Source: Bacteroidota bacterium
GTDB taxonomy: Bacteria; Bacteroidota; Ignavibacteria; Kapaibacteriales; UBA2268
Length of the DNA stretch: 64,000 nucleotides
Direction: 5' to 3'
Assembly: GCA_004322215.1 (NCBI GenBank)
Contig: SCSM01000039.1
Coordinates: 96,744 to 160,743 of the forward strand
In this document: positions 1 to 52,356 of the stretch, one piece after another
Layout: every line of letters begins with the position of its first letter
How positions within the stretch are numbered: position 1 is the first letter of the stretch
The notes under the pieces: model-generated
The model's input: the letters and a program-made list of their open reading frames with translations, nothing else
The model's database searches: none
Told to the model about the DNA's origin: nothing
Made by a program: the position numbers and the translations under genes

Positions 1-795
1 GGAGATACAACCTGGTTAAGACGTACAGAAAAGGATTTCTTTGGTGCTTTTGATGTGAAATTTGATTCAGAAAATAATATGTGGTTAGTCGAATACCATT
101 TCGGTTCTGATACACTTAGACACAGAGATAAAGATTTATTTTTTAAAAAGGTAAATGACACCGCATTTCAACATTTCGATTTGAAAGCAAGAAAAATTGT
201 CATTGATAAAGAAGACAATGTCTGGACATCGCAGGGGGATAAAATTGATAAATATGGCAATATTACACACATCAATTTAGAAGGAATTAATGGTGAATGG
301 AATGGATTTTCGGTTGCAATAGACTCATCAGAAGCAATTCTGTTTGGTGGTGCAAGTGTATTAGCAAGACTCGATAAAAATGGTAATATAACTTACCACT
401 ATGTTCCTTATGAATACCATATTGAAAAGATAACTGATATTGCTGTAGATAAAAATAATCGAATTTGGCTTGCATCTGTTTATTTATATAGATTGGACAC
501 TTATGTGAATATTAAAGATGAAACATCAATAAATTCAAATAAAATCATAAATATATTTCCTAACCCATCTAACAACATTGTAACTTTTAGTTATAATCTT
601 CAAAAAGATTGTCAGGTTAAATTGGAGTTGTACAATTTACTTGGGAAAAAAGTAACAACATTAGTAAATGAGTTTCAATTTGCTGGAGAAAAAAATATAA
701 TTTATAATTTAAATAATTCCTCAAATGGCTTACTCTATTATATCATAAAATTAGATGATACAATAGAATCAGGAAAACTCATTCAATGTGATTAA
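1..795 (+). CDS. Partial (5' end outside window) secreted beta-propeller protein with T9SS C-terminal sorting domain
   Basis: Frame is open from nt 1, so the track's GTG start at 55 is not the real start. Reg_prop-like beta-propeller motifs (NNRIWLAS). The C-terminal ~80 aa (NIFPNPSNNIVTFSYNL...KLELYNLLGKKV...GLLYYIIKL) match a Por/T9SS C-terminal domain. Confidence 0.6.
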   Translation, partial: GDTTWLRRTEKDFFGAFDVKFDSENNMWLVEYHFGSDTLRHRDKDLFFKKVNDTAFQHFDLKARKIVIDKEDNVWTSQGDKIDKYGNITHINLEGINGEWNGFSVAIDSSEAILFGGASVLARLDKNGNITYHYVPYEYHIEKITDIAVDKNNRIWLASVYLYRLDTYVNIKDETSINSNKIINIFPNPSNNIVTFSYNLQKDCQVKLELYNLLGKKVTTLVNEFQFAGEKNIIYNLNNSSNGLLYYIIKLDDTIESGKLIQCD

Positions 796-817: not shown

Positions 818-3052
818 CTACAAATCCTTATACGGATTGGGTCCTACTTCGTCTATCGTTTCGGCGAATTTGTTGAATATATCAGGCAGACGGTCGTACT
901 CGTCAATAGAAAGTGTGTGGATTTCCACGCGTTCCGGCTCCAATACGAGCTGTTTCAATTTCTCCTGAACATTTTCCATCCTGATATTCGCAAGCTCGCT
1001 GCCGCGTATAAAGTGGCACTGGTAATCATCCCCGTATTTACAGCCGATGAGAATCGCACCGTCGAATCCGGCGGCGAGTGCATCATTAATCCAGCTTGTG
1101 CTGACCGAACCGAGACACCTGACGGGAATTACCCTGATGTTCGGTGTGTAAAGCATCCTCTTTCTTGCGGCGATATCGAGAGAAGGATATGCATCGTTTT
1201 CACACATAAAGGCAATGATTCTCGGCTTCTCCTCATCTTCTTCCGGCATGTCAATTGATTTTATCATTGCTGAAATAATCGGCACAGAATAATCCTTGAA
1301 GCTGACAATTCTTTCGGGACATGCGCCCATGCAAATACCACAGCGGCGGCACCTGTTGGGATTCGGCATCGGAGTACCTTTTACGTCTTCTTCCAATGCA
1401 CCAAAGGGACATTCTTCAGTACAACGCTTGCATTGAGTACATCTCTGGAAGAAGAAATCGGGATAAGTCTTATCTCCTGACCTCGGGTGAACTGCAATAC
1501 CTTTCCTGATAGCTTCGAGTGCCTGGATTGCCTTGAGTGATGCACCGAGCGCATCGTTCTTGCATGCAACTGTATCCATCGGGTTTCTCACAGTTCCAGC
1601 CGCATAAATGGCTGTACGCCTTGTTTCGTAAGGGAAGCAAATGTAATGTGAATCGGGGAAACCGTAATGCAGAGTTGGTAAATCTTTCCCCTGGATGTAT
1701 TTCAAATTCAATACCGAATATTCCGGCTCGACTGCTTCATCAGGTTTTTCTTCGGCAGGTTTAGAATCTACTGAGGGATTTTCTGTTTTTTTAACAGTTT
1801 TTATTCTGTCAGCCGCTGAGTTTGGCATCATACCTGCGGCAAGTACAACCATATCTGCCTGAATTTGAATCTTCTCACCGACAAATGTGTTATCAACATC
1901 AACATTAATTGTTCCATTATTAACATTAACTCCTGCAATCTCGCCTTTTGTGAGAAAGATAGTGTCTTCGTTTTGAACCCGCTTTAAGAACAATTCATAA
2001 TTCGCGGGGGTGCGGAAATCCTTATATATGATATATATTTTTGCATTGGGATACTTTTCCTGAACATACAATGCCTGCTTCAATGAAGTCATACAGCATA
2101 TTGAGGAGCAGTAGGGAAGATGTTCCTTATCACGGGAACCTGCACACTGAATAAATACGATGCTGTTAATTGCTCCGTTATCACTTGGTTTCTTTAGATT
2201 ATTATTCTTTGCGAGTTCTTCAAATTCAACATTCGTTACAATGTTTTTGGAAGAACCATAGCCGAGATATGATAGCTTCTCCGGCTCATAAGGTTTCCAG
2301 CCCGTCGCTTGTATGATTGTACCGACAACGAAGTTTTGAGTATCGCCATTAATTTTTGCAGTAACATTGAAAGCTCCCGGCTGTCCTGCAGTCTCTTCCA
2401 GTGTGCAGTTAGTCAAGACTTTGATTTTATCATTAGACATTATCTCAGCAATCAAATCATCGCAGGGATTTGCTTCGAGTTCAGTATAAGGTGCTTTTCG
2501 AGGAGTCAGTTTATAGAGTTTTTTATAATATCCTCCGAGTTCTTTTTCTTTTTCAACAAGAACAACATTATATCCCGCTTTGGCAGATGACAATGCCGCA
2601 TTCATACCCGTTACACCACCACCGACAACCATGACAGTATCATTGATGTCGAGAATCATCGGTTGAGGAATATCTGAATTCTGCATTTTGACTACACCCA
2701 TTTTTAAATAATCTTTTGCGAGTGCATCGGTTTCTTCTTCATTCGGCTTATGTGACCAGCACACGTGTTCCCTTATGTTCACCCTGTCAACAAGGACATT
2801 TTCACCGAACCTGAAAACTTCTGTCATATATCTTGGAGAGCATGCACCTATGACAACCCTGTTGAGTCCTTCTACTTCAATATCTTTTCTGATTTCCTGA
2901 ATTGCGAGGTCTCCGCAAAGGCAGGAGTTGATTTTTGATACAGGGATTTTTGTTTCTTTCTGAACTGTCTCGCAAATCGCCTGGCAATTAATTGAACCAC
3001 CGATTTCACATCCTGAGCATAAGTACATTCCGACTTTAGTTTCTATAGCCAT
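818..3052 (-). CDS. HdrA-family FAD/FeS flavoprotein with C-terminal MvhD-like domain (QmoB-like)
   Basis: 744 aa. N-terminal Cys cluster, GxGxxG FAD fold (VMVVGGGVTGMNAAL), ferredoxin-type CxxCxxCxxxCP motifs, and a C-terminal MvhD-like segment (CENDAYPSLD...VIPVRCLGSVS...ILIGCKYGDDYQCHF). Size and domain order match QmoB (~750 aa). Confidence 0.7.
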   Translation of the reverse strand: MAIETKVGMYLCSGCEIGGSINCQAICETVQKETKIPVSKINSCLCGDLAIQEIRKDIEVEGLNRVVIGACSPRYMTEVFRFGENVLVDRVNIREHVCWSHKPNEEETDALAKDYLKMGVVKMQNSDIPQPMILDINDTVMVVGGGVTGMNAALSSAKAGYNVVLVEKEKELGGYYKKLYKLTPRKAPYTELEANPCDDLIAEIMSNDKIKVLTNCTLEETAGQPGAFNVTAKINGDTQNFVVGTIIQATGWKPYEPEKLSYLGYGSSKNIVTNVEFEELAKNNNLKKPSDNGAINSIVFIQCAGSRDKEHLPYCSSICCMTSLKQALYVQEKYPNAKIYIIYKDFRTPANYELFLKRVQNEDTIFLTKGEIAGVNVNNGTINVDVDNTFVGEKIQIQADMVVLAAGMMPNSAADRIKTVKKTENPSVDSKPAEEKPDEAVEPEYSVLNLKYIQGKDLPTLHYGFPDSHYICFPYETRRTAIYAAGTVRNPMDTVACKNDALGASLKAIQALEAIRKGIAVHPRSGDKTYPDFFFQRCTQCKRCTEECPFGALEEDVKGTPMPNPNRCRRCGICMGACPERIVSFKDYSVPIISAMIKSIDMPEEDEEKPRIIAFMCENDAYPSLDIAARKRMLYTPNIRVIPVRCLGSVSTSWINDALAAGFDGAILIGCKYGDDYQCHFIRGSELANIRMENVQEKLKQLVLEPERVEIHTLSIDEYDRLPDIFNKFAETIDEVGPNPYKDL

Positions 3053-3053
3053 C

Positions 3054-4325
3054 TCAGTTCCCTCCTTTCACAATGTGAATTGCTTTCATCGCAGCACCTG
3101 TTGATTCCTGCACTACAGAAGACACCTCCTTAGGTCCTGTGCATACTCCGCATCCGATAATTGTTTTGTCAACATCTGTTCTTATAAATCCGTTTTCATC
3201 TAAAATTGATTTATCAGGGAATCCATTCCTTGATTTTGTCGGTTGCATTCCTGTTGCCAGCACAACAAGGTCAACTGTATATTGTTTCAAAACAGCATTC
3301 ATTGTATCATCTGCCTCAACTATTAATTGATTTGAATCCGGGTCCTGCATTACCTTTGCAACCTTACCCCTATGAAAAAACACCTTGCTGTCGTTCTGCA
3401 TTTTTGAATAAAAATCTTCAAGTGGTCCCGGTGAACGAATGTCAATATAAAATACATGAATCTCAGTTTCAGGTATCTGCTCTCTAATGTATTGTGCTTG
3501 CTTGAGCGAAGCCATACAGCAGACTGATGAACAATACTCGAGATGGTTCTCATCACGCGAGCCGGCACACTGAACAAATGCAACTTTCTCTATTGGTTTA
3601 TCTGAACCCGGAATCTGGATTTTTCCACCGGTTGGTCCGCTTGGCGAAGCAAGACGTTCGAGCATCATATTTGTAATGACACCCTGCAGCTTGCCGTAAC
3701 CTAATGTTTCCAGCTTCTTTGCATCGTAAGGGTCCCAGCCGGATGCCCACACAATAGCTTTTGCACTTATATTTAATTCTTTTTCTTCTTCATTAAGGTC
3801 TATTGCATTATACTTGCAGGAATCAATAATCAAATTCAGTTCTTCCCGGCTGCAAAGTTTTTTATCGAGAACATATTTCATAGGATAGCAATTATTATAG
3901 GGAAGATAAATCGCCTTTGTTTTGTCCATACCGAAATTGAAATCGTTGCTTCTCTCGACAGTACAAGCAGTGGCACAATCGCCGCAGTTTGTGCATTTAT
4001 TATTCACATATCTCGGATTTACTTTAACATTTACATTGTAATTTCCTGCATCACCTGAAATAGTTTTCACTTCAGAAAGAGTATAAAGAGTGATTCTCGG
4101 ATTGTCTCTCAATCTTCTTATGTTAATTTCCAAACCGCAGGTAGGCGGGCACAATTTTGGGAAGTATTGATTCAGTTGAGCCACTCTACCGCCTATATAA
4201 GGATTCTTTTCAATGAGTGTTACAGTGAATCCGGTTTCTGCCGCTTCTAATGCAGTCGAAATTCCTGAAATTCCTGCTCCAACTACCAGAATGTCAGTAT
4301 CAATAGAACACTTTTCCATAATCAT
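3054..4325 (-). CDS. HdrA-family FAD-dependent flavoprotein (QmoA-like)
   Basis: 423 aa. ILVVGAGISGISTALEAAETG FAD-binding fold. YFPKLCPPTCGLEINIRRL motif typical of QmoA/HdrA. A 2-nt gap to the downstream QmoB-like gene makes a qmoA->qmoB-like operon on the minus strand. Confidence 0.7.
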   Translation of the reverse strand: MIMEKCSIDTDILVVGAGISGISTALEAAETGFTVTLIEKNPYIGGRVAQLNQYFPKLCPPTCGLEINIRRLRDNPRITLYTLSEVKTISGDAGNYNVNVKVNPRYVNNKCTNCGDCATACTVERSNDFNFGMDKTKAIYLPYNNCYPMKYVLDKKLCSREELNLIIDSCKYNAIDLNEEEKELNISAKAIVWASGWDPYDAKKLETLGYGKLQGVITNMMLERLASPSGPTGGKIQIPGSDKPIEKVAFVQCAGSRDENHLEYCSSVCCMASLKQAQYIREQIPETEIHVFYIDIRSPGPLEDFYSKMQNDSKVFFHRGKVAKVMQDPDSNQLIVEADDTMNAVLKQYTVDLVVLATGMQPTKSRNGFPDKSILDENGFIRTDVDKTIIGCGVCTGPKEVSSVVQESTGAAMKAIHIVKGGN

Positions 4326-4602
4326 TTCTTTCTATATTATTTATCATTTTTGATGTTTCAATTGCAAGAGGTATGAGGTTAAAATTCCATCTATATCTCT
4401 GTCATCCAATAATCATAAATCATTATTGTTTCTAAATTAAATTACTTAGTCAGCTATTACAAGTGTACAAATCTTATTGTAATCTGAGTGTGGTGAAATG
4501 CGGGATAAATTTATATATTTGAAATTGTGATAATGACATAACTAAAAGTTTTAAATAATTAGGAATATAATTCCTCTTAATTCCAAATTATTAATATGAA
4601 TA

Positions 4603-4857
4603 ATGACAGAAAATGCAAAAATTATAACCGATAAACTGAAAACTGCACTGGAATCCGATTCTAATGTGGATTTTGCGGTTACTTTCGGTTCTGTGTTGGA
4701 AAAAGAAAAATTCAGGGATATTGATGTTGCCGTATATTTCGTAAAACCACCCGAAGGTATGGAACTTCTCAATTATATGGCATCACTTGACAGGGCGGTA
4801 GGCGCAGAAGTTGACCTTAACGTGTTAAATTCTGCAGGTCCATTTCTAAGACATTAA
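4603..4857 (+). CDS. MNT-type minimal nucleotidyltransferase (antitoxin of a HepT/MNT TA pair), apparently interrupted by an in-frame TAA
   Basis: GS...D.D nucleotidyltransferase motif (VTFGSVLEKEKFRDIDVAVYF). After the TAA at 4855-4857 the same frame stays open to 4983 and encodes ...GEHLFLRD..., a typical MNT C-terminus, overlapping the HepT start by 11 nt. Confidence 0.6.
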   Translation: MTENAKIITDKLKTALESDSNVDFAVTFGSVLEKEKFRDIDVAVYFVKPPEGMELLNYMASLDRAVGAEVDLNVLNSAGPFLRH

Positions 4858-4972
4858 GTTTTCAAAATAGGGGAGCATTTATTCCTTCGTGATTTCATAA
4901 AATATGCAGATTTCTGTGATAAGACAATTGCAGATTATATGGATTATAAGTACATCACAGGATTGGATAAAT

Positions 4973-5395
4973 ATGATAGATAAAATTCTTGTTGAAAGAA
5001 ATTAAAAAGCCATCGAGGACTTTCTCAGGGAAATTCAGAATAGTCCAGAGGTAAATAAATTTTATGAATTTGAAAATAATGTTCAATTCAAAAGATTCAT
5101 TGAAAGAAACATCGAACTCTGCATTGAGAAGATGATTGATGTTTGCAGGCATATAGTAAGCCATTTGAATCTGAAGGAGCCAGAATCATACAGTGAATGC
5201 TTTGAAATGTTGACTAAGGAAGGAATAATTTCTCAGGAATATCTTACAACAATACAATCAATGATAAAGTTCAGGAATTTACTAATCCATGCTTATGAAA
5301 AAATTGATGACAATATCACTTATGGAATTTACAAAAAACACCTGCCTGATATTAAGCAATTTGTACATGTCATTAGAAAATATAATATAAAGTAG
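4973..5395 (+). pseudogene. HepT (DUF86, HEPN-fold) toxin with an in-frame TAA at 5003-5005; the track reports only the 3' portion (5132-5395)
   Basis: ATG at 4973 gives MIDKILVERN, then TAA, then KAIEDFLREIQ... in the same frame as track ORF 5132-5395. The C-terminal R-x4-H-x-Y HEPN motif is present (FRNLLIHAYEKID). Confidence 0.55.
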
Positions 5396-25334: not shown

Positions 25335-27962
25335 TCAATAGATTAAAATTTTACCGGTCTTGTAATAACTATTTATGTTTATAAAATAAAAATATACACC
25401 GATTTCTAATTTTGAGCAATCTATAATAGTTATATTATTCCTTAGGTTTTTAGTCAATACTTTCCTTCCTGTCATGTCGTACATTACGAATTGAAAAATT
25501 AAATTATGAACTCCCGCATTGACGATAATTTTTTTATTTCCGCAATAATTAAATGTGATTCCCTTTTCAAAATCCTGTTCTATACCATTGGGTTTGACGG
25601 TAGTAAATTTCCAGGTATCGGACCAAGCACTTGAATCATTGTTGCCGAATGCTTTTACATGCCAATAATAGGATGTATTAAAAGCTAAATCATTATAGTT
25701 TAATTTAGCGGAATCAATTCCATTAACATTTAAAATATTATTTAGGAAATCGGGATAAATCGATAATTCGACATTATAGCTTGATGCATTCTCAGCATGC
25801 TCCCAAATCAGATAGCCATTCAAGGGTACATTACCAGAATCATTTATTGGTGAAATTAAAACCGGCGATGCAAGCGTCCTTGTTACTTCAGTGGTTAATT
25901 TGAAGGGAACTGACCATTCACTTTCATTATCGAAATTCATAGCTTTAATCCGCCAGAAATAAATCCTGCTGTTTTCAAGAATGGCTTGATTAAAGATTGT
26001 GTCGGTTATACCTGTTTCATCAGTTATTAGTGAGTCGAAATCCGGTGTCTTCGAAATGTTTATTTTATAGTAGGTTGCTCCTTCGACAGAATTCCATATA
26101 AATATTCCTTTAACTGAAAAATCATTATTCTCATCTAATGGATATTTCAACTCAGGAGATTTTAATAAAGTTGTAAAAGACCATGAATCTGACCAATTGC
26201 TTTCATTCTCATCATATAATGATTTCATACGCCAGAAATAAGTCGTATTATTTTTCAGTTGCTGATATTTGAAGGTTGTATCTGATGTAATTAATGAATC
26301 GATTAGAACTTTAGAAAAATCAATATTATTTGATATTTGTAATCTATATGAAACTGCACTGTCAATATTTTTCCAAACAAAATTCGGCGAAACAGTTATT
26401 TTCTTTGAATTATTTACAGGGGAAATCAGTAAGGGTGATTCATAAATTTGGGGCTCAGCAAGTATAAATTCACCGAATGTGCTAATGGATGCTTCGAGTA
26501 AACCTTGCTGAGCATTATAAGTAGTAGGTAATTCCTTGAAGTTCCCCATTCCTTCCTGTTGGCGCCAATAAATTTTATTTTTTTCCGGTGATTTGAGTGA
26601 GTCAATGGCTGATAATCTGAAAATGATTTTTCCTGTGAAGCCGGTAATTCCTTTATTATTTAGAACCCATCTATTGCCGTAAGTAATTAACGGAGGTAGA
26701 TTTTCGTATGAAACATTATGCGGTGAATAGTAATGTCTCTCAGTAGAAACATAACCGGAACCGGTCAGGGACTGAATGTTTAATTCAACGGCTGTATTAT
26801 TATCAGAATCGTTGAAATTAAAGTTACCGGAATTTTGCATAAATAAAATTTTTGATGCCATGATTATAGGATAACGCATAGCCATATAGGATTCCAAGTT
26901 TCTCGCTTCGATAGCTCTTGTACCGTCGGCTCTTACTTCGACAAAAGTCATTTGCTGCAGATTAGTACCCCAGCCGATTAATGTATTTCCATTGGGAAGC
27001 CGCTCAACACTACCTTGAGACATTGTATAAACTGAGGGGAATGGGTTATATTCCCAAACTTTGCGAATTGTTTTATTTACTTCATCTATTTCGTATTCTA
27101 CAGCTCTCGATTGCTGAAGAGGATTCATGTTCCCATTGTCAAACAACAGAATATTGCCGTTTGGCAACCTATGAACAGAGTGCTGATGCGAAAATCCCCA
27201 AAACCCGTCAATTGTATCATTTAAAAATGTAAATTGATTATTCTTGCATTTTTTTCCTCCAAGACGCCAAATAATATTTCCCGATTGCTTTTCTATTTTT
27301 GTTATTTCATCCAGGTTTCTTTCAGATATAAGCAAATTACCGTCTGAATCCACCTCAAAACTATTTATGTGTACCCATGCAATATTTTGTTGGGTCAGAT
27401 CTATATCAGAAGTTGCATCGGTTACCTGTAAATGGTCTAATGCATGCCATTCCCAAACAACATTTTTATTTTCATCCTGTTCCTGTAATGCAAAGGATAT
27501 TAATACGGCATCAGGTTTTCCTCCCGGATAGATTGAACTCATATCAACAGTATCATATTCAATTCCAAGGAGTAAACCATGTCCATTATTCAAAAGTTTA
27601 AAGTCATGGAAATCGGTTTCAAGTCCGTTCTTACATGCGAAACTGTCAAGTAAATCGAGATTACGGTCAACAACATAAAATTTATTTCTGGCAAAATAGC
27701 TTAACTTCACGTTTTCTTGTTGACTAAAACATCTTGCATTGACATTTCTCTCAATTCTTTTTTTAAATGCAATTTTACCCGAATTGTCAATTAATGTGAG
27801 ATAACCCTGCTGGTAAGAATCTAATAACAAATAACCTGGTGCTGGATTATCTAATGTAATTACTGTTAAGTCAAACTGTGAATATGATGGTAAAGTACTT
27901 ATAATTAAAATCAAACAAAAAATAATTACTTTATAAATATCCGATAATTTCTTTATTTTCAA
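25335..27962 (-). CDS. Secreted arylsulfotransferase (ASST)-like beta-propeller protein with 3 Fn3-like repeats and T9SS C-terminal domain (paralog 1)
   Basis: Signal peptide. ~470-aa beta-propeller with NPAPGYLLLD, FWGFSHQHSVHRLPNGNILLFDNGN and LPNGNTLIGWG motifs. Three ~95-aa repeats ending YFWR(M/I)K...WS..W.FTT. C-terminal sorting domain (...KTGKILIY). Confidence 0.5.
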   Translation of the reverse strand: MKIKKLSDIYKVIIFCLILIISTLPSYSQFDLTVITLDNPAPGYLLLDSYQQGYLTLIDNSGKIAFKKRIERNVNARCFSQQENVKLSYFARNKFYVVDRNLDLLDSFACKNGLETDFHDFKLLNNGHGLLLGIEYDTVDMSSIYPGGKPDAVLISFALQEQDENKNVVWEWHALDHLQVTDATSDIDLTQQNIAWVHINSFEVDSDGNLLISERNLDEITKIEKQSGNIIWRLGGKKCKNNQFTFLNDTIDGFWGFSHQHSVHRLPNGNILLFDNGNMNPLQQSRAVEYEIDEVNKTIRKVWEYNPFPSVYTMSQGSVERLPNGNTLIGWGTNLQQMTFVEVRADGTRAIEARNLESYMAMRYPIIMASKILFMQNSGNFNFNDSDNNTAVELNIQSLTGSGYVSTERHYYSPHNVSYENLPPLITYGNRWVLNNKGITGFTGKIIFRLSAIDSLKSPEKNKIYWRQQEGMGNFKELPTTYNAQQGLLEASISTFGEFILAEPQIYESPLLISPVNNSKKITVSPNFVWKNIDSAVSYRLQISNNIDFSKVLIDSLITSDTTFKYQQLKNNTTYFWRMKSLYDENESNWSDSWSFTTLLKSPELKYPLDENNDFSVKGIFIWNSVEGATYYKINISKTPDFDSLITDETGITDTIFNQAILENSRIYFWRIKAMNFDNESEWSVPFKLTTEVTRTLASPVLISPINDSGNVPLNGYLIWEHAENASSYNVELSIYPDFLNNILNVNGIDSAKLNYNDLAFNTSYYWHVKAFGNNDSSAWSDTWKFTTVKPNGIEQDFEKGITFNYCGNKKIIVNAGVHNLIFQFVMYDMTGRKVLTKNLRNNITIIDCSKLEIGVYFYFININSYYKTGKILIY

Positions 27963-28011
27963 TTAATCCACTTATTTTTTAATTTTACAAAATTATTTTT
28001 AATTGATTACC

Positions 28012-30633
28012 TCAATAAATTAATAACTTACCTTTAACGATACTATCGATTTGAATAATTGTATAAAAATAAATACCTCTTTCTAAATTATAACAATCAA
28101 TAATTGTCTTATAATCAGTTAAGATTCTTCTAAGAGTAATTCTCCCGGTAATATCGGCAATTATTAATTCCGTATTATTATTAAGATTTTCAATATTTAT
28201 AAATAATTTGTTATTACTTTCATTATAAATAATAAAATTATTTTCATTATCAGATACAACAGAACCATAATTTTGAGTTCTGAATTTCCACGTCACCGAC
28301 CAGGAACTTGTGTCAAATTGGTTAGAAGCTGCCACATGCCAATAATAAACTGTACTATAATTTAAATCAGAGTAATACATATTGGTTGAATTTATACCAA
28401 TTTGTGATATTTTTTTTACAATAAAATTTGAATCAATTGACAGTTCAATTTTATAAGACATTGCATTTTTAACCTGATACCAATAAAGAAAACCAAATAA
28501 AGGTATGTCTGTTGTATCGTTAGCAGGTGATTGTAAAATCGGTATATTCAGGACTTGATTTATTTCAGTCATGAATATATTTATATTAGACCAGGAACCT
28601 TCATTATTGGAATTTAATGGCTTAACACGCCAGTAATAATATTTGTTGAAATCCAGGGGAGTTAGAGGGCTGAATCTTGTGATAGTTACATCTGATTTAT
28701 TTACAACTATAGAATCGAAATCGGGGTCTAAGGATATATTAATTATGTATTTATCTGCTCCTGGTACTGAATTCCATTCAAATATTCCCTTAACTTGAAA
28801 TTCTGTTTCACGATTGGCTGGTTTAATCAATTCAGGTGTTTTCAACAAAGTAGTAAAAGACCATGGATTTGACCAATTTGTTTCATTACCGTTAGTAACA
28901 GATTTGAGTCTCCAATAATATATTTTATTATTTTCAAGTCCGGTTAATGCTAATGTTGTGTCTGCTGTCAATCCTGTGTCAACAAGGTTTACATTAAAAT
29001 TGATGTCAGTTGAAACCTGGAGTTTGTATGAATCGGCTCCGTTAAATTTATGCCATAATAAATATAAAATTATCGGATTCTTAGTTGAACTGTCTGCCGG
29101 AGATATTAACAATGATGTCTGAGAATCAAGTGGTACTCCTAAAATGAATTCTCCGAATGAAATTATATTAGCTTCGAGTGTCGACTGAGATTGATTATAC
29201 GTTGTCTCCAAAAGTGAAAATTTACCGCTGCCTTCCTGTTTACGCCAATAAATTTTATAATTCTTAAGTGAATCAGTACTGACAATTTCTGATAATTTGA
29301 ATATAATCTTAGCTGTTAATTGGCTTATACCTTTATTGTTTAATACCCATCTGTGTCCGTAAGTTTTTACAGGTGCTAATCCATCATAAGCTATGTTGTG
29401 TGGAACATAATCATGCCTTTCGACTGACACATAACCGGAATCCGTCAAACCATAAATGTCTAATAATACACCTGTTTTGTTACTTGTGTCTGAAAAGTTG
29501 TAAATTCCGGCATTCTGCACCATTATTAGTTTCGAAGCCATAATTATCGGATACCTCATTACCTGATAAGATGAAAAATTCTTTGCCTCCATTGCTTTCG
29601 AGCCGTCAGGCATAACTTCGGTAAAAGTAATCTGTTGAGTATTTGCTCCCCAACCAATAATTGTATTTCCGTTTGGAAGTCTTTGTACACTACCCTGAGT
29701 GATAGAATAAATATCCGGAGAACATCTGTATTCCCAAACTTTTTTTACAGTCTTGTTTACCTCATCGATTTCATATTCAACAGCACGTGAATATTGAATT
29801 GGTTTCAGATTTCCATTATCGAACAGAAGGAGGTTCCCGTTAGGGAGCAGGTGTATTGAGTGCTGGTGCGAAAATCCCCAGAAACCATCAATTGTATCAT
29901 TTAAAAAGGTGAACTGATTGTTCTTACATTCTTTACCGCCAAGACGCCAGATAATCGCACCTGTCTGCCTGTTAATTTTTGTTATTTCATCCAAATCACG
30001 GCTCGAAATGAGGACATTTCCATCATAATCAATTTCAATACTATTAGTATGGACCCATGACACATTTTGCTGAGTTAAGTCAACACTTGAAGTAGCATCG
30101 GTAACCTTATAGTGGTCTAAAGTATTCCATTCCCAAATGACATTTTTATTTTCATCCTGCTCCTGAATAACAGAAGACCTTAGTACAGCATTGGGTTTTC
30201 CCCCAGGAACAATTTCACTCAAATCGACAGTATCATACACATTACCCAGAAAAAATGCATTGCCGTCATTTGTTAGCTTAAAGTCGTGGGGATCAATCAT
30301 TAAAGAGTTTTTTATGACGAAACTATCGATAAGATTAAGACCATTATCAATCGCATAAAATTTTAAATTTGTATAGAATGTTAATAAATCATTCTTCTGA
30401 ATGTAAAGAACATCCCCTTTTTGGAAATTTTTCAATTTATCATTAATAACCGCAAATCCCGAATTATCAGTTATTGATAAATATCCATCCTCGAAGGTAT
30501 CCATTAAGAGATAACCTGGTGCAGGATTGTCGAGTGTTAATACTGTAATTTTATTTTGGGATAAAATTGAATAATTATTAATTATTAATAATAAAATTAT
30601 AAATAAATTAATATTTAAAAGATATTTTTGCAT
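28012..30633 (-). CDS. Secreted ASST-like beta-propeller protein with 3 Fn3-like repeats and T9SS C-terminal domain (paralog 2)
   Basis: Same architecture as paralog 1, with similar but clearly non-identical sequence (NPAPGYLLMD, FWGFSHQHSIHLLPNGNLLLFDNGN). Confidence 0.5.
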   Translation of the reverse strand: MQKYLLNINLFIILLLIINNYSILSQNKITVLTLDNPAPGYLLMDTFEDGYLSITDNSGFAVINDKLKNFQKGDVLYIQKNDLLTFYTNLKFYAIDNGLNLIDSFVIKNSLMIDPHDFKLTNDGNAFFLGNVYDTVDLSEIVPGGKPNAVLRSSVIQEQDENKNVIWEWNTLDHYKVTDATSSVDLTQQNVSWVHTNSIEIDYDGNVLISSRDLDEITKINRQTGAIIWRLGGKECKNNQFTFLNDTIDGFWGFSHQHSIHLLPNGNLLLFDNGNLKPIQYSRAVEYEIDEVNKTVKKVWEYRCSPDIYSITQGSVQRLPNGNTIIGWGANTQQITFTEVMPDGSKAMEAKNFSSYQVMRYPIIMASKLIMVQNAGIYNFSDTSNKTGVLLDIYGLTDSGYVSVERHDYVPHNIAYDGLAPVKTYGHRWVLNNKGISQLTAKIIFKLSEIVSTDSLKNYKIYWRKQEGSGKFSLLETTYNQSQSTLEANIISFGEFILGVPLDSQTSLLISPADSSTKNPIILYLLWHKFNGADSYKLQVSTDINFNVNLVDTGLTADTTLALTGLENNKIYYWRLKSVTNGNETNWSNPWSFTTLLKTPELIKPANRETEFQVKGIFEWNSVPGADKYIINISLDPDFDSIVVNKSDVTITRFSPLTPLDFNKYYYWRVKPLNSNNEGSWSNINIFMTEINQVLNIPILQSPANDTTDIPLFGFLYWYQVKNAMSYKIELSIDSNFIVKKISQIGINSTNMYYSDLNYSTVYYWHVAASNQFDTSSWSVTWKFRTQNYGSVVSDNENNFIIYNESNNKLFINIENLNNNTELIIADITGRITLRRILTDYKTIIDCYNLERGIYFYTIIQIDSIVKGKLLIY

Positions 30634-30776
30634 ATTAATGATTAGTATAAAAAATTTCTAATTTATATTTGATTAGCAAATGAATTCAATATAAAAAAAG
30701 ATTATATATATTTAAATTGATAATCATATATAATAAAATATTTAAAAATTAACTGCTTCATTTATATAGCTATTTA

Positions 30777-32840
30777 TCATCGTAAAATATAAATTTTCCC
30801 ACATACTGTACAATTTGAATATTGCATCCTATAAAAATAAATACCATTATTCAGATTATTAAATTTTATTTCACAAGTGTTTAAGAACGATATATTTATT
30901 GACGAAGCCATTTGTACCGGGTTACCTAAAATATCAAACAATGTGATATTAATTTGACCGGGATTGTTATTAATTTTTAAAATTAATCTGTCTTCATATT
31001 GAAAGACAGAAATATCAGATTGAATTATTTTATCATCAATTGTCGTTAATGGTATTGTGGTAAACATCATTGTTTCAGACCAGGAACTATGTCTCTCATC
31101 ATAAAATGCCATCACACGCCAATAATAAATTCGATTGTAATTCAAAATGACATCGAGATGATTATTGGTAATATTAGATGAATCAATTACTAATTCAGTA
31201 AATTCAGGGTTCAGTGATAGTTGGAGACGAAACTCCGAGGCAAATGAAACCGGCTGCCAAGTAATTTTTGTATTTATACTTACATCCTTTTCATTATTTG
31301 CAGGAGAAATCGTAATAGGTGCCATTATTGAGTCCGTCATTCCGATAATAAACTCACCGGTACTCTTAATTTTTGCTTCCAAGCAATTAAAGTTTGGGTT
31401 GTAAGTTGTCTTTAATTGTTCAAAGTTGCCATCACCTTCTTTTTGCCGGAAAAAGATACTTTCATAATATGATTCACTGGAAGAATAACCATATAGATAA
31501 AATCTGATTAGAGCATCTATATCATTGCCATTATTAGAGGAAAGCACCCATCTGTTATCAAATATCTCTGTAGGGTTTTGTCCTGAAAATATTAAATTAT
31601 GGGGTAAATAATCATGCTTTTCGATTGAAATCAATCTTGCATCTTTTATATTATTAATTTCTAATTTAACATCAGTAATATTAGTATCGGATGAGAAGTC
31701 ATAAATTCCGGGTTTATCGGCAAATAATGTTACAGCATGCATTTTGTATATGTATTTATAAACTGCATAATTCTGATAATCGCTAATTTCCAAAACTTTT
31801 TTCCCATCAGGAGTTACTTCTGTCGCCGTCAGATTGTCAGAATTCAAACCCCATCCAATCAGAGTATTCCCGTTAGGAAGCCGCTGAACATTACCCATAG
31901 AATAAGAATTAAAATCAGGGGATAAAGAATATTCCCACACCTTTTCTATTGTTTTATTTAACTCATCAATTTTGTACTCAACTGCTCTTGTGTAGGGTTT
32001 TGGTTTTAAATCTCCATTATCGAGCATGAGCAGATTCCCGTTTTGTAATCTTAGCACTGAGTGTTGATGCGAAAATCCATAAAATCCGTTTATTGTATCA
32101 TTAAGAAATCGAAATTGATTATTCTTACAAGTTGCACCGCCGAGACGCCAAATAATATTACCGGACTGCCTGTCTATTTTTGTAACTTCATCGAGAGCCC
32201 TGCTTGAAGCAATTATATTGCCATCCGTATCATAAAAAATGGAATTCATGTGACAGGATATAAAAGAATTTTGGTTAGTATCAATTCCCGGGACCATATC
32301 AGACAGTTTGAAATGGTCGAAAGAATTCCAATTAAATATTAAATTTTTATTTTTGTCAAATTCCTGAATGACATTGCCGATTACCTGTATATCTTTGTGT
32401 CCGCCCGGAATAATATTGCTTAAATCCATGAACCTGACTTCACGTCCTAAAATTGCCGTGTTACCGTTTGGTAGAAATTTTATATCATGGAAATCAACTT
32501 CATAATTACCAACACAATTAAAACTATCAATTAATTCATAACTATCATTCATAAGATAATACTTGTCTCTCGAGAAAAAACTAATCATTCCATTGGGTTG
32601 AACTTTAGGATTCAGAAATTCATCGAATTGTCTCAAAGTTTTTTCAAAAACCGGTTTACAGGTGTTATCAACTATATAAAACTTTTGGGAGTAATGAGGA
32701 GTTAAGAAAATATAACCGGGTGATGGATTATTATATAAATCTAACTTATACGGAGGCGTTGTTTGAGCAAATAAATGACAAACCAATATTAAAAACACAA
32801 ATACATGAGAAAAAACTGTCTTCATTTCAAAAAACCTCAA
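30777..32840 (-). CDS. Secreted ASST-like beta-propeller protein with 1 Fn3-like repeat and T9SS C-terminal domain (paralog 3)
   Basis: NNPSPGYIFL, FYGFSHQHSVLRLQNGNLLMLDNGD and LPNGNTLIGWG motifs. The start is probably the internal MKTVFSHVFVFLIL signal peptide. Confidence 0.5.
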   Translation of the reverse strand: MRFFEMKTVFSHVFVFLILVCHLFAQTTPPYKLDLYNNPSPGYIFLTPHYSQKFYIVDNTCKPVFEKTLRQFDEFLNPKVQPNGMISFFSRDKYYLMNDSYELIDSFNCVGNYEVDFHDIKFLPNGNTAILGREVRFMDLSNIIPGGHKDIQVIGNVIQEFDKNKNLIFNWNSFDHFKLSDMVPGIDTNQNSFISCHMNSIFYDTDGNIIASSRALDEVTKIDRQSGNIIWRLGGATCKNNQFRFLNDTINGFYGFSHQHSVLRLQNGNLLMLDNGDLKPKPYTRAVEYKIDELNKTIEKVWEYSLSPDFNSYSMGNVQRLPNGNTLIGWGLNSDNLTATEVTPDGKKVLEISDYQNYAVYKYIYKMHAVTLFADKPGIYDFSSDTNITDVKLEINNIKDARLISIEKHDYLPHNLIFSGQNPTEIFDNRWVLSSNNGNDIDALIRFYLYGYSSSESYYESIFFRQKEGDGNFEQLKTTYNPNFNCLEAKIKSTGEFIIGMTDSIMAPITISPANNEKDVSINTKITWQPVSFASEFRLQLSLNPEFTELVIDSSNITNNHLDVILNYNRIYYWRVMAFYDERHSSWSETMMFTTIPLTTIDDKIIQSDISVFQYEDRLILKINNNPGQINITLFDILGNPVQMASSINISFLNTCEIKFNNLNNGIYFYRMQYSNCTVCGKIYILR

Positions 32841-32960
32841 GCAAAATAATTATGCTTCAATGTAAATATATAATACCTACGTAATCGTTTTTTATATTAT
32901 TACTTCTTACTTATAGTAATAACTGTTTTTTTTCAATTTTGTTACAGAGATTTTTTTCAA

Positions 32961-33497
32961 TTAAATTATTTCATTGTTTTTTAAATAACTTAATACTACC
33001 CTAACGCAATCATCGGGTGACTTATTTTCTGTATTAATCATAATGTCGGGATTCTCCGGCTTTTCATAAATTGAATCGATTCCGGTAAAATCAATAATCT
33101 CTCTGATTCTTGCTTTTTGATAAAATCCTTTCGGGTCTCTTTTTTCGCATACATCAAACGGAGTGTTTACGAAAACTTCAACGAAATGAAAATCAGACAA
33201 TATGCTCCTCGCCGACTGCCTATCCTGTATGAATGGTGAAATTAATGCACAAATGGCATTAACACCTGACAATGCCACAAGTTTTGCCATTTCTGCTGTC
33301 CTGCGAATGTTTTCTTTCCTGTCTTCATCGCTGAAACCCAAATCTTTACTTATTCCTTTACGCATGGTATCACCATCGAATAAAACCGAGGAAACCCCCC
33401 TGGTTAGTAATGCTCTTTTCAAATGCTCGGAAACGGTGGTTTTCCCACTTGCCGAAAGCCCTGTGAACCAAATAACAAATGGTTTTTTATTTTCCAT
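32961..33497 (-). CDS. cysC: Adenylyl-sulfate (APS) kinase
   Basis: 178 aa. P-loop (FTGLSASGKTT). APS-kinase core (DGDTMRKG ... RRTAEMAKL ... ALISPF). Makes PAPS from APS. Confidence 0.85.
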   Translation of the reverse strand: MENKKPFVIWFTGLSASGKTTVSEHLKRALLTRGVSSVLFDGDTMRKGISKDLGFSDEDRKENIRRTAEMAKLVALSGVNAICALISPFIQDRQSARSILSDFHFVEVFVNTPFDVCEKRDPKGFYQKARIREIIDFTGIDSIYEKPENPDIMINTENKSPDDCVRVVLSYLKNNEII

Positions 33498-33500
33498 ATC

Positions 33501-34583
33501 TTAATTTAAAAAAGTGTTATATATATTAGAGTAATCGTTTCTTATTCTTTCTTCAGTCAATCCAAATTGTTCAAGTGAATATTTATGACCGCTTTTGTGA
33601 CTTCTTTGCTTTTCGGCAGTAGAATTTATTTTGTTTAAAAGTTCGGCTGATTCATAAACATTTATAAAATTCAATATTTCATGCATCTCTATTTCGAATT
33701 CATTCATCATCCTGTCGTATCTGACTATTTTAATTTTTTCTTTAGGAAATTTCCCATTAACATAATCATCATGGAAACGAGTACTTAATTCCAGCAATGC
33801 AGAGTAAAGCCGTTCTATATAAAAATCCCTTTTGTTTTTCGGAAGTTTCCAGAATCCGAATCTTCCGTCGAGAACACCAGTTACGAGACTCAAGCCGGAA
33901 GGTACTGTTTCCAGTGGGTCTCTTAATGTATATAATATTTTAGCATCGGGAAAATATTCCAGGAACTTCGGTAATCGCACCCCAAGCGAAAATAATTTAC
34001 CGATAATCTGTTCATGATTTTCGCTTATTAAATTCCGTTTCCAAATTTTTTCAAACCATTTAAAGTCACGTTTGGAAGTATCCCTGATATTTGGGTCAAA
34101 ATATGTACTTAAATCTTCTTTTGCCCAGGCAAGAAAAAAACCGTAAACAAAAAAATCGTCAAAGAAATGGAAAAGCAATGAGGGGTCATCAGTTTCGATT
34201 GCCCTCAGATTTGTTTCGTGTGCAGCATGAGAATGGAATCGTGCGGGACTAATCTTTTCCATTAATGTAACAAATGGCTTGAAAATAAATTGAAGTGTCA
34301 ATGAAGGAAACAACATTTTCCATAGCTGCATTCCGACACCAATTTTTTGGTTAACCAGAAATCTCTGTAAAAAAGTTGTGCCGCTGCGGGGATTTCCGAC
34401 AATGAAAACAGGATTATTGATTTTTTTTCCTGACAATGACGGATAAAATAAATTATCGAGAATCATTCCAACGTTTACAATCAGTCTTAGAAAGAGCAAG
34501 CCGCTATAGGTGAATAAAGGTGCAAACGGTTTATGAAATGTTGAAACGATTGAAAAATATGACCTGAACATATTTCTTAACAT
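33501..34583 (-). CDS. PAPS-dependent sulfotransferase family protein (Sulfotransfer_3-like)
   Basis: 5'-phosphosulfate-binding loop (IVGNPRSGTTFL). 3'-phosphate-binding RDP motif (TLRDPLETVPS). 360 aa, with a hydrophobic N-terminal segment. 3-nt gap to cysC. Confidence 0.7.
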   Translation of the reverse strand: MLRNMFRSYFSIVSTFHKPFAPLFTYSGLLFLRLIVNVGMILDNLFYPSLSGKKINNPVFIVGNPRSGTTFLQRFLVNQKIGVGMQLWKMLFPSLTLQFIFKPFVTLMEKISPARFHSHAAHETNLRAIETDDPSLLFHFFDDFFVYGFFLAWAKEDLSTYFDPNIRDTSKRDFKWFEKIWKRNLISENHEQIIGKLFSLGVRLPKFLEYFPDAKILYTLRDPLETVPSGLSLVTGVLDGRFGFWKLPKNKRDFYIERLYSALLELSTRFHDDYVNGKFPKEKIKIVRYDRMMNEFEIEMHEILNFINVYESAELLNKINSTAEKQRSHKSGHKYSLEQFGLTEERIRNDYSNIYNTFLN

Positions 34584-34595
34584 GTGTGCCTCATT

Positions 34596-35564
34596 TCAAA
34601 ACCTAAATAATGTAAAAGCAACGGACAAACCGGCACCTGTTCCGCCTAAAATGCACAAATCACCACGGTTAATTTTACCAGCTTTATGATAGATAGCCAA
34701 TGTCAACGGAATAGAAGCAGCAATGCAATTTCCATATTCTCTAATAATGTTGGCGACCTTTTCCATCCTGAACCCGTATAATTCTGCAGCTTCCACAGCG
34801 TGGCCTGATGCCTGATGCGGTATAAGCCAGTCAATATCTTTTGCTTTCAATTTATTTCTATCAAATAATTCTTTCAATGATTTTTTCACGCTACCTAAAG
34901 CAAACCTGTACACTTTTGAACCTTGCATCGTGAATAAATTATCTTCTGGTTTGGTTAATGTCGGATGGTCAGGTGGATGCTTAGTACCTCCACCACGAAA
35001 TTCTGTCAATTCAGCACCTTTGGGCCATGTGTTCATTTGCCAATCCAACAAAGCACTCGATTCATCCTTCGGAGTCGGTTCAATAACAACAGCAGCTGCG
35101 GCATCGCCGAAAAGTGATGCACTTTCGGGTTCATTCAAATTTCTCCAATGAGTGCCGGTTTCAGAAGATACAATCAAAATACGTTTGAATGTTCCGCCCT
35201 GAATCAATGCAGCAGCAGTATTCAAAGCGACAACAAATGAAAGGCATGTGGAATGGATTGACCATGAAGGAATTCCTTCATATCCTAATGCTCTTTGTAT
35301 GAAAACCGAACTGTCGGGAATTAATTGCAAGGGTGTAGTTGAGGCGTTAATAATGCAATCAGGAGAAGGACCTCCATTTAATGCCTGACTGGCAGCTTTT
35401 GCTGCTATCACATCCATCGGCTCTTCTGCAATTCTTCTTTCAGATATTCCTGTTCTCGATATAATCCATTCTTCACTTTGACCGATTAATTCAGCGAGGT
35501 CCGCAGATGTCTGAATACGTGGGGGAATATAAAACCCCGTAGAAACTATTTTTATGTTATACAT
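34596..35564 (-). CDS. FabH-like beta-ketoacyl synthase III / thiolase-fold condensing enzyme
   Basis: 322 aa. FabH-type N-terminus (VSTGFYIPPRIQTSADLAELIGQSEEWIISRTGI). Cys-His-Asn triad context (IHSTCLSF; IPHQASGHAVE; YGNCIAASIP). 12-nt gap to the sulfotransferase gene. Confidence 0.7.
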   Translation of the reverse strand: MYNIKIVSTGFYIPPRIQTSADLAELIGQSEEWIISRTGISERRIAEEPMDVIAAKAASQALNGGPSPDCIINASTTPLQLIPDSSVFIQRALGYEGIPSWSIHSTCLSFVVALNTAAALIQGGTFKRILIVSSETGTHWRNLNEPESASLFGDAAAAVVIEPTPKDESSALLDWQMNTWPKGAELTEFRGGGTKHPPDHPTLTKPEDNLFTMQGSKVYRFALGSVKKSLKELFDRNKLKAKDIDWLIPHQASGHAVEAAELYGFRMEKVANIIREYGNCIAASIPLTLAIYHKAGKINRGDLCILGGTGAGLSVAFTLFRF

Positions 35565-35626
35565 TCAATTACACTCTTAGTCAATTTTAAATTATTGTCG
35601 TATGATTACATTATTATCACATTCCG

Positions 35627-38167: not shown

Positions 38168-38209
38168 TTCTTACTCCTCAAAGCTATAAATCTATTTCCA
38201 TTTTTAAAA

Positions 38210-50664: not shown

Positions 50665-52356
50665 ATGTCAAATACATCAAAAAATATAGTTATCATAGGC
50701 GGAATGGCATCAGGGTGCAAAACCGCTGCAAGATTGAAGAGAATCAAACCGGATTATAATATTACAATCATTGAAAAGAAACCGTTTGTCTCTTATGGTA
50801 CATGCGGTATGCCTTTCTATGCATCCGGAGAAGTTGATGATTTCTACGATTTGGCAATAACATCATGGGGAACAATCCGCGATGCTGAATATTTCAAAAA
50901 AGCGAAAGATATAAATGTTCTGACTGAAACGGTTGTTAAAAATATAGATTTAGAGAGCAAACAGGTTCACTGTCAGAATTCTAAGGATTACAGCAGGTTT
51001 CCACTTTCTTTCACTAAGCTTGTGATTTGTACGGGGGCAAAGCCGAAGAAGCCACCTTTTTCTGTTCCTCATTCTGAAAAGATTTCAACTTTTCATAATC
51101 CTCTCGATGCAAAAAAATTCAGGGAGTTCGTTCAAAGAGGAAAAATTGGGAAAGCAATTATTATAGGCGGTGGTTTTGTCGGTTGTGAATTAGCTGAATC
51201 ACTTGTAAGTTTATGGGGTATAGAATCACATCTCGTCGAGCTTGAAGAACGGCTTCTGCCAACTTCTTTGGATGAAGAAATGTCACTATTTCTTGAAAAG
51301 ACATTCAAAAATAATGGAATATATCTTCATCTTTCATCGAAAGTTGAGAAATTAGAAATAAATAATGCAGGAAATCCTGAAGTTCATCTTATTAATGGTG
51401 AGAGCATAAACTCAGACTATGTTTTCCTTTGTATTGGAATTGAACCTGAAATTAAGCTTGCCAGTTCAATCGGAGTTAAAACCGGAGTGAATGGTGGAAT
51501 ATTAGTTGATTCTCAGATGAGGACGAATATAGAGAATGTATGGGCTGGAGGAGATTGCGTCGAAGTAAAATCACTCATTACTGGCAAGCATGAACTATTT
51601 CCATTCGGTTCACTCGCAAACAGACAGGGGAGAGTGATTGCTGATTCAATTGCAGGAAAGAAATCCGAATTCAAAGGTGCAGTTGGTGCGATTTCATTAA
51701 AAGTCTTCGGATTAATTGTTGCTGCTTGCGGTCTAACAGAGAAAGAGGCAATTAATAATGATTATAATGCTGGAATAGTTTGGGGTTCCTGGCAGGACAG
51801 ACCTGATTACCATCCTGATTCAAAATTATTGTTTGGTAAATTGCTCTATGAAAAAGGGACTTTGAAACTTCTTGGAATTCAACTTGCAGGTAAAGGAGAA
51901 GTGACAAGATACATTGATGTATTTTCGACTTTAATCTCGAAAGATGCAACTGTTCACGGTTTAATTGATGTCGAGCATTCATATACTCCTCCTCATTCAT
52001 CGCCGATGAATCCACTGAATTCGCTCGGTGCGATGGCTCTATCACAGGAAGAAGATAGTATTATGGCATTGAATCCGCTATTACTCAATAATTACATAGG
52101 TAATGTACTTGATGTAAGAGAATCCACTGAAATCAACAATGAAGGACTTGGAAAAAGAGCAAAAGAATTTCCGGTGATGGAGTACAGAGAAAAATTAAAT
52201 ATATTTGACAAGAATAAACAATTACTTATTGTATGTCAGAAAGGACCGAGGTCTTATGAAGCAGCAAGAACATTTATCAATGAGGGATTCAGGGATGTTA
52301 AATATCTTGGCGGTGGATTGCAGTTCGCTAAAACTGTACTTGATGATGAAGAATAA
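50665..52356 (+). CDS. CoA-disulfide reductase / NADH oxidase family flavoprotein fused to a C-terminal rhodanese domain
   Basis: FAD fold (IVIIGGMASGCKTAARL). Redox Cys (SYGTCGMP). Second Rossmann motif (AIIIGGGFVGCELAE). C-terminal rhodanese with active Cys (LIVCQKGPRSYEAA). Confidence 0.7.
   Translation: MSNTSKNIVIIGGMASGCKTAARLKRIKPDYNITIIEKKPFVSYGTCGMPFYASGEVDDFYDLAITSWGTIRDAEYFKKAKDINVLTETVVKNIDLESKQVHCQNSKDYSRFPLSFTKLVICTGAKPKKPPFSVPHSEKISTFHNPLDAKKFREFVQRGKIGKAIIIGGGFVGCELAESLVSLWGIESHLVELEERLLPTSLDEEMSLFLEKTFKNNGIYLHLSSKVEKLEINNAGNPEVHLINGESINSDYVFLCIGIEPEIKLASSIGVKTGVNGGILVDSQMRTNIENVWAGGDCVEVKSLITGKHELFPFGSLANRQGRVIADSIAGKKSEFKGAVGAISLKVFGLIVAACGLTEKEAINNDYNAGIVWGSWQDRPDYHPDSKLLFGKLLYEKGTLKLLGIQLAGKGEVTRYIDVFSTLISKDATVHGLIDVEHSYTPPHSSPMNPLNSLGAMALSQEEDSIMALNPLLLNNYIGNVLDVRESTEINNEGLGKRAKEFPVMEYREKLNIFDKNKQLLIVCQKGPRSYEAARTFINEGFRDVKYLGGGLQFAKTVLDDEE

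Follow-up and report, generated by a model that had tools for sequence, protein, structure and literature searches.

An isolated qmoA-qmoB gene pair in a flagellated OPB56/Kapabacteria genome, most likely part of a canonical Qmo complex

The window analysed here, a 64-kb stretch of the 251-kb contig SCSM01000039.1 from a Bacteroidota metagenome-assembled genome (MAG), carries close to its left edge two adjoining genes for HdrA-like flavoproteins, qmoA and qmoB. The qmoA gene (4325..3054, minus strand) encodes a protein of 423 aa and is defined by its open reading frame (ORF) and by Pfam and NCBIfam matches. The qmoB gene (3052..818, minus strand) encodes a protein of 744 aa, defined by its ORF, the Pfam FlpD match and an alignment to MvhD. 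According to the ORF calls, a single base lies between the stop of qmoA and the start of qmoB. The initial annotation of this DNA had matched the two proteins to QmoA and QmoB by size, domain order and gene order. This assignment is borne out by ORFs at exactly these coordinates, by the Pfam domains and by 50-62% identity to Qmo proteins.

QmoA contains an FAD Rossmann motif at residues 11-50 and one Fer4 motif according to Pfam. The YFPKLCPPTCGLEIN motif, to which the initial annotation had pointed, is found in the 423-aa protein, and QmoA also carries the cluster motif CAGSRD...YCSSVCC. Against the methanogen structure 5ODC, it aligns with HdrA residues 141-568 only (E=2e-87). Its size fits the type of about 410-425 aa in which the N- and C-terminal ferredoxin domains of HdrA are missing. 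Of the inserted ferredoxin domain, the first CxxCxxCxxxC motif is kept and the second is degenerate, with two cysteines left.

QmoB combines an FAD/NAD Rossmann domain (residues 138-257) with two [4Fe-4S] motifs (536-581), and its C-terminus is an FlpD/MvhD domain (612-737, E=1.6e-39). In the N-terminal domain, the window protein has all four cysteines, C12, C15, C46 and C71. Further residues are invariant in 80 aligned QmoB sequences and present in the window protein, namely C303/C315/C319/C320 in the FAD domain, C472 and the eight ferredoxin cysteines between C538 and C578. The same holds for C617, C646, C671 and C679 of the MvhD-like domain, the four ligands that the initial annotation had singled out for inspection. 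When QmoB is aligned with MvhD of 7BKB_F/5ODC_D, three cysteines coincide and the C-x-x-C of MvhD corresponds to C-x-x-D in QmoB. With 744 aa and intact C-terminal MvhD-like cysteines, window QmoB conforms to the size range of about 740-760 aa. In the MAG it is deposited as TAL67394.1 under the NCBI label 'hydrogenase iron-sulfur subunit'.

The closest solved structures found by the PDB search are methanogen HdrA and MvhD, and there is no Qmo structure among the PDB entries searched. The top NCBIfam models for the pair, HdrA2/HdrA, score 372 and 410 bits where the cut-off is at least 1100 bits. Methanogen HdrA is far less similar and matches in part only (224 bits), compared with 50-62% over the full length to Qmo. 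Type-II Qmo and generic HdrA are rejected on identity and gene context, with HdrA scores far under the cut-offs.

A scan of GTDB species genomes returned at least 80 loci with QmoB relatives of 51-68% full-length identity, from Ignavibacteria, Kryptoniota, Zixibacteria, Deltaproteobacteria, Acidobacteria, Nitrospirota, Gemmatimonadota and Archaeoglobus. The GWB2_35_12-like species discussed below is not among the loci listed. ORFs were called and clustered in all loci, and the gene-order maps cover 83 loci. Among the GTDB matches listed, 61 of the 75 scorable loci have apr, sat, qmoC or dsr within 10 kb. The typical order is aprB-aprA-x-qmoA-qmoB-qmoC in Deltaproteobacteria and sat-x-aprBA-qmoABC in Archaeoglobus. 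Many Ignavibacteria carry a supercluster of the order dsrC-dsrT-dsrMKJOP-[CoADR-rhodanese]-[hemA]-[CMP-kinase-like]-qmoA-qmoB-sat-aprB-aprA-(hppA)-hyp-hyp(CxxCxxCC)-qmoC. In further loci of these types, Pfam calls for ATP-sulfurylase, APS-reductase_C, NIR_SIR, DsrC and NrfD confirm the gene identities. The co-oriented order of qmoA followed by qmoB is common to all related loci. Full-length identity of the window pair to proteins encoded inside apr/dsr-linked clusters of Ignavibacteria, Zixibacteria, Deltaproteobacteria and Archaeoglobus is 50-60% for QmoA and 53-62% for QmoB. Both by identity and in a neighbour-joining tree, the two proteins fall with true Qmo from sulfate reducers and apart from the generic HdrA of fermenters, the grouping that the initial annotation had proposed to check. 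On these sequence comparisons, the pair consists of orthologues of QmoA and QmoB, not of generic HdrA, and they fit the canonical type-I Qmo family as PMC10504309 defines it.

In subunit size, domain order and the cysteines that bind cofactors, the window pair matches type-I Qmo from Desulfovibrio, Archaeoglobus and Chlorobaculum. Identity is 50-57% to the deltaproteobacterial and Archaeoglobus aprBA-qmoABC loci, which stand here for the biochemically characterised Desulfovibrio proteins. The difference lies in gene arrangement. Desulfovibrio-type qmoABC forms one operon, usually beside aprBA, whereas qmoAB of the window is unlinked from both qmoC and aprBA. In this respect it resembles the QmoAB-HdrBC and QmoAB-HdrD systems of Gram-positive sulfate reducers and some sulfur oxidisers, which also have qmoAB without an adjoining qmoC. 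In those systems, however, hdrBC or hdrD lies directly 3' of qmoAB and replaces QmoC, and neither is found at the window locus or at any other locus with an isolated pair. With the methanogen HdrABC-MvhAGD complex (5ODC, 7BKB) the pair has its fold family as well as Fe-S and flavin motifs in common, QmoA corresponding to HdrA 141-568 and the QmoB C-terminus to MvhD, but it scores far below the HdrA cut-offs and has neither hdrBC nor mvhAG beside it.

By tblastn, the whole 64-kb window contains no homologue of QmoC, AprA, AprB, Sat, DsrAB, DsrMKJOP, DsrC, DsrD or DsrN. The Logan contig L084 from the same organism continues for about 8 kb past the left edge. The genes found there are HicAB, adk, yebC and VWA-OmpA only, and no sulfate-reduction gene is called in this part. 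No ORF for hdrBC or hdrD adjoins the pair, whose 3' neighbour is a convergent gene for a type IX secretion system (T9SS) cargo protein. The initial annotation was thus right that qmoC, apr and hdrBC are missing next to the pair, and this absence, together with that of sat and dsr, holds for the 64 kb and for approximately 8 kb to its left.

The closest relative of this locus puts the isolation of the pair into context. The protein cluster of the 91%-identical match P0002 contains OGU41269.1 of 'Ignavibacteria bacterium GWB2_35_12', which aligns gap-free with window QmoB at 90.7% identity; QmoA of this genome is 89.5% identical. The contig of this genome, MGZV01000030.1, runs collinear with the window and L084, and nucleotide identity across the locus is about 83%, which places the window in a different species. 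Identities of the collinear genes are 79% for FlgD, 83% for a flagellar protein, 96% for FlgE, 71% for the nucleotidyltransferase, 89.5% for QmoA, about 90.7-90.8% for QmoB, 91-92% for HicAB, 95% for adk, 87% for YebC and 89% for VWA-OmpA. In GWB2_35_12, qmoAB sits between flagellar hook genes and adk-yebC, and no sulfate-reduction gene is found within 10 kb of qmoAB on MGZV01000030.1. The pathway is nevertheless reported for this genome of 4.02 Mb and 35% GC. Thiel et al. (2019, PMC6338057 Table 3) list aprAB, sat, qmoABC and dsrABCDJKLMNOPT all as present and reassign GWB2_35_12 to the OPB56/Kapabacteria clade; the supplements of PMC6338057 give no qmo accessions. In Candidatus (Ca.) Thermonerobacter thiotrophicus, one operon has the order sat-aprBA-hyp-hyp-qmoC and is followed by dsr, with adjacent qmoA and qmoB elsewhere on the chromosome (PMC6338057). 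All 20 of its sulfate-reduction genes, including qmoAB, fall into night/anoxic expression classes (PMC6338057). Kapabacteria of the family UBA2268 are counted among the sulfate reducers and carry reductive DsrAB, DsrD and DsrL-2 (Kadnikov et al. PMC7509429; Diao et al. PMC10591310).

The window pair likewise lacks neighbouring sat-aprBA-hyp-hyp-qmoC-dsr genes, from which the adjoining qmoA-qmoB of Ca. Thermonerobacter and GWB2_35_12 are separated. Both of these organisms are flagellated, and the flagellar gene cluster of the window indicates the same for its host. The split-Qmo relatives differ in that the remaining pathway is reported for them, while of this pathway the readable DNA of the window MAG shows qmoAB. 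In the OPB56/Kapabacteria, qmoAB is relocated away from the remaining pathway, an arrangement that is already published for the closest relatives of the window organism. We therefore regard it as highly probable that the pair encodes two subunits, QmoA and QmoB, belonging to a canonical type-I Qmo in a flagellated member of the OPB56/Kapabacteria, most likely a dissimilatory sulfate reducer, with the partner genes located elsewhere in the genome. From the sister genome and the literature, QmoC, sat, aprBA and dsr are expected outside the readable part of this genome. The result matters mainly for annotation, as it marks the MAG of TAL67394.1 as a probable OPB56/Kapabacteria sulfate reducer.

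An isolated qmoAB could also be a relic, left behind after the loss of sulfate reduction and now decaying or idle. The ancestral supercluster is indeed fragmented in the window, where qmoAB and a CoADR-rhodanese/hemA pair described below lie 46 kb apart. Against this stand intact ORFs, the conservation of all ligands and a dN/dS of about 0.06 over a dS of about 0.9 relative to GWB2_35_12 (0.055 for QmoA at dS 0.99, 0.058 for QmoB at dS 0.86). Values of dN/dS this low show that purifying selection on qmoA and qmoB is strong and that neither gene is a relic. On this selection signal, we reject a pseudogene or relic and consider such a state extremely unlikely.

The direction of electron flow has to be weighed separately. 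The same Qmo could run oxidatively as in green sulfur bacteria, with AprAB converting sulfite to adenosine 5'-phosphosulfate (APS) and electrons passing to menaquinone. Qmo, Apr and Sat are common to sulfur oxidisers and sulfate reducers, and the Chlorobia are related to this lineage (PMC6338057, PMC10504309); no feature of the window fixes the direction. Yet GWB2_35_12 and the UBA2268 Kapabacteria have reductive-type DsrAB, DsrD and anoxic night-time expression (PMC6338057, PMC10591310), and we judge oxidative operation to be improbable. From the sister genome and the literature, we infer that the Qmo of the window works in the reductive direction.

In a reductive complex of this kind, QmoA and QmoB would constitute the cytoplasmic flavoprotein part. 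QmoC, which joins a dihaem cytochrome b to an HdrC-like Fe-S domain, would oxidise menaquinol. The electrons would reach AprAB by way of the Fe-S clusters and FADs in QmoB and QmoA, and AprAB would then reduce APS to sulfite and AMP. The route from QmoC via QmoB/QmoA to AprAB is established for the Qmo of Desulfovibrio. That Qmo also takes a second, low-potential input, confurcating at its HdrA-like flavins, is so far a proposal without demonstration. The knowledge on Desulfovibrio Qmo is reportedly owed to work by Pires in 2003, Ramos in 2012 (PMC3333476) and Duarte in 2016.

The window pair is one of a group of isolated pairs. In the neighbour-joining QmoB tree, which comprises 80 sequences and is distance-based without support values, the pairs that stand apart from sulfate-reduction genes group into a single clade (the window, L001-L008, L010, L011, L020, L028 and L029). 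Its sister group is the Ignavibacteria clade whose qmoAB lies within the supercluster. The neighbours of the isolated pairs vary from locus to locus. Since the isolated pairs form one clade, the tree fits one old, ancestral relocation of qmoAB. Two loci outside this clade, L036 (Ignavibacterium sp.) and L038 (Zixibacteria), have qmoAB followed by dsrAB-dsrD-dsrN-dsrL-dsrC. Because QmoC cluster members (P0259 for L036, P0266 for L038) come from contigs of the same length as those of qmoAB (261,671 and 257,405 bp, respectively), qmoC appears to lie on the same contig at more than 10 kb from qmoAB, and separation of qmoC from qmoAB appears to be recurrent across lineages.

From the missing neighbours, the initial annotation had proposed a different function, namely a soluble QmoAB/HdrA-like module without membrane anchor, QmoC or AprAB, possibly electron-bifurcating and with unknown partners. 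Several observations favour such a module and at the same time weigh against a complete Qmo complex in this organism. No qmoC, apr, sat or dsr gene of the window MAG is seen in the readable DNA, which comprises the 64 kb and about 8 kb of the 251-kb contig, 72 kb in all without a partner gene. The isolated pairs represent an old and diverse clade whose neighbours are not conserved. Searches for QmoC were seeded with Ignavibacteriales QmoC and with L086-type QmoC, taking the best 120 clusters each and naming their representatives. Among these best 120 clusters listed, no QmoC is traceable to any isolated-pair genome, be it GWB2_35_12, the window MAG or an isolated-pair genome of 5.46 Mb (L002), a result that is uninformative and no evidence of absence, because it covers the best 120 clusters and names are given for representatives only. 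Finally, two to four of the four N-terminal QmoB cysteines are lost in L001, L002, L005, L007, L020, L028 and L029, a subclade that makes up half of the isolated pairs.

These points are met by the sister genome and by the protein itself. The collinear, 91%-identical pair of GWB2_35_12 is isolated in the same way and coexists with a published full set that includes qmoC, sat, aprAB and dsr elsewhere in the genome, so the step from missing neighbours to a soluble bifurcating module is not supported. In Ca. Thermonerobacter, the unlinked qmoAB is co-expressed with the sulfate-reduction genes. Window QmoB retains every canonical QmoB ligand and belongs to the half of the clade with all four N-terminal cysteines. 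The absence of QmoC, for its part, concerns the best 120 clusters with only their representatives named. The QmoC candidates for which membership (20 clusters) or gene context (six loci) was inspected all belong to cluster-type loci with qmoAB nearby. Seven contigs are common to the QmoB and QmoC matches listed, none of them known to carry an isolated pair, and they allow no conclusion for the isolated-pair genomes. A soluble module is hence an unlikely description of the window pair, and to infer a new function from absent operon neighbours is weakly founded in this lineage.

For other members of the clade, the N-terminal domain deserves attention. Outside the isolated-pair clade, each of the cysteines at the positions of C12, C15, C46 and C71 is kept in 97-100% of 66 QmoB sequences, and their loss suggests that some isolated-pair members may be functionally diverged. 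Six isolated-pair loci have a gene for a 779-aa acidic repeat protein without Pfam match directly 3' of qmoB (L001 12315-14654; also L002, L004, L007, L010 and L011); the window contains no homologue. One could imagine that in the isolated-pair clade (the window, GWB2-like genomes, further Kapabacteria/Ignavibacteria MAGs and the genome of 5.46 Mb) QmoAB was freed from QmoC and AprAB and took up a new partner as a soluble redox or bifurcating module of the HdrA type. Signs of such a release would then be the N-terminal [4Fe-4S] ligands missing from QmoB in half of the clade and the acidic repeat protein of the six loci. For the window genome, a release requires the absence of qmoC and apr, unlike in its 91%-identical sister. 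We give little credence to this scenario. The part of the clade without QmoB Fe-S cluster ligands is the place to seek functional change, if there is any.

The immediate flanks of the pair are variable. The T9SS cargo gene, of which the window holds the 3' end (1..795, called as 55..795, plus strand), ends 22 bp from the qmoB stop and is truncated by the window edge. Complete, it encodes 722 aa (L084 6550-8718). The Por_Secre_tail match agrees with the initial annotation, which had called a convergent T9SS cargo gene downstream; the gene is outside the Qmo system. In GWB2_35_12, HicAB genes take this place 3' of qmoB. On the other side, a 277-bp intergenic region (4326..4602, minus strand) presumably holds the promoter of the two-gene operon, with a single sigma-70-like match, TTGAAA-16-TAATAT at 4361..4334, upstream of qmoA. 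The promoter and terminator scan of the locus yields nothing above chance (13 promoter-like sites versus 13.2 expected from shuffling), and the match at 4361..4334 is no evidence by itself.

Further upstream follow a toxin-antitoxin pair of a nucleotidyltransferase and HepT and then the flagellar hook/basal-body cluster. The Polbeta nucleotidyltransferase and HepT genes lie at window positions 4603-5395 (plus strand), between the flagellar cluster and qmoA, with L099 7053-8436 as the second stretch compared. At this position GWB2_35_12 has kept the Polbeta nucleotidyltransferase, no HepT is called, and an insertion sequence (IS)-type transposase (DDE_3 and HTH) and a 723-aa gene are found. Together with the additional T9SS cargo gene 3' of qmoB in the window, the surroundings of qmoAB form a small rearrangement hot spot.

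The initial annotation had listed APS kinase, sulfotransferases and a fusion of coenzyme A disulfide reductase with rhodanese (CoADR-rhodanese) as signs of an unusual sulfur metabolism. All of these genes are present in the window, and a relation to Qmo is retained for the fusion but not for the others, which form a separate cluster. The CoADR-rhodanese fusion (50665-52356, plus strand; Pfam) and the adjoining hemA for glutamyl-tRNA reductase (52393-53592, plus strand) are 51% and 50% identical, respectively, to cluster-embedded homologues in L013. In about 20 superclusters of Ignavibacteria and Kryptoniota, this gene pair lies between dsrP and qmoA (L009 6471-9400; L013 439-3386). In the window, no dsrMKJOP lies beside it. 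CoADR-rhodanese/hemA is possibly associated with the Qmo system of the window, and judged by gene order the two pairs fit pieces of a fragmented ancestral supercluster. The role of this persulfide/CoA-type reductase in sulfate reduction of the phylum seems worth testing.

The sulfation cluster consists of genes for APS kinase (32961-33497), a sulfotransferase of the 3'-phosphoadenosine 5'-phosphosulfate (PAPS) type (33501-34583) and a FabH-like protein (34596-35564), all on the minus strand and about 20 kb from qmoAB. This trio is flanked by the genes for the large sulfotransferases of the window, five paralogues of the arylsulfotransferase (ASST) family, located within 25335-41071 on the minus strand, whose products are secreted, four of the five with a T9SS tail. 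No counterpart of the cluster is found in any Qmo or Dsr locus examined. It appears to be a system for sulfation, secreted or at the cell surface, with no relation to Qmo.

A last observation concerns the linked clusters of the FCB group, in which the interval between aprA and qmoC holds two conserved small genes (L086 8873-9951; L089 8986-10014; L093 18454-19564). One encodes 70-99 aa, in some cases with an Ogr_Delta-like zinc finger, and the other a CxxCxxCC protein of 260-306 aa (PF03692). They correspond to the 'hyp-hyp' genes of Thiel et al.

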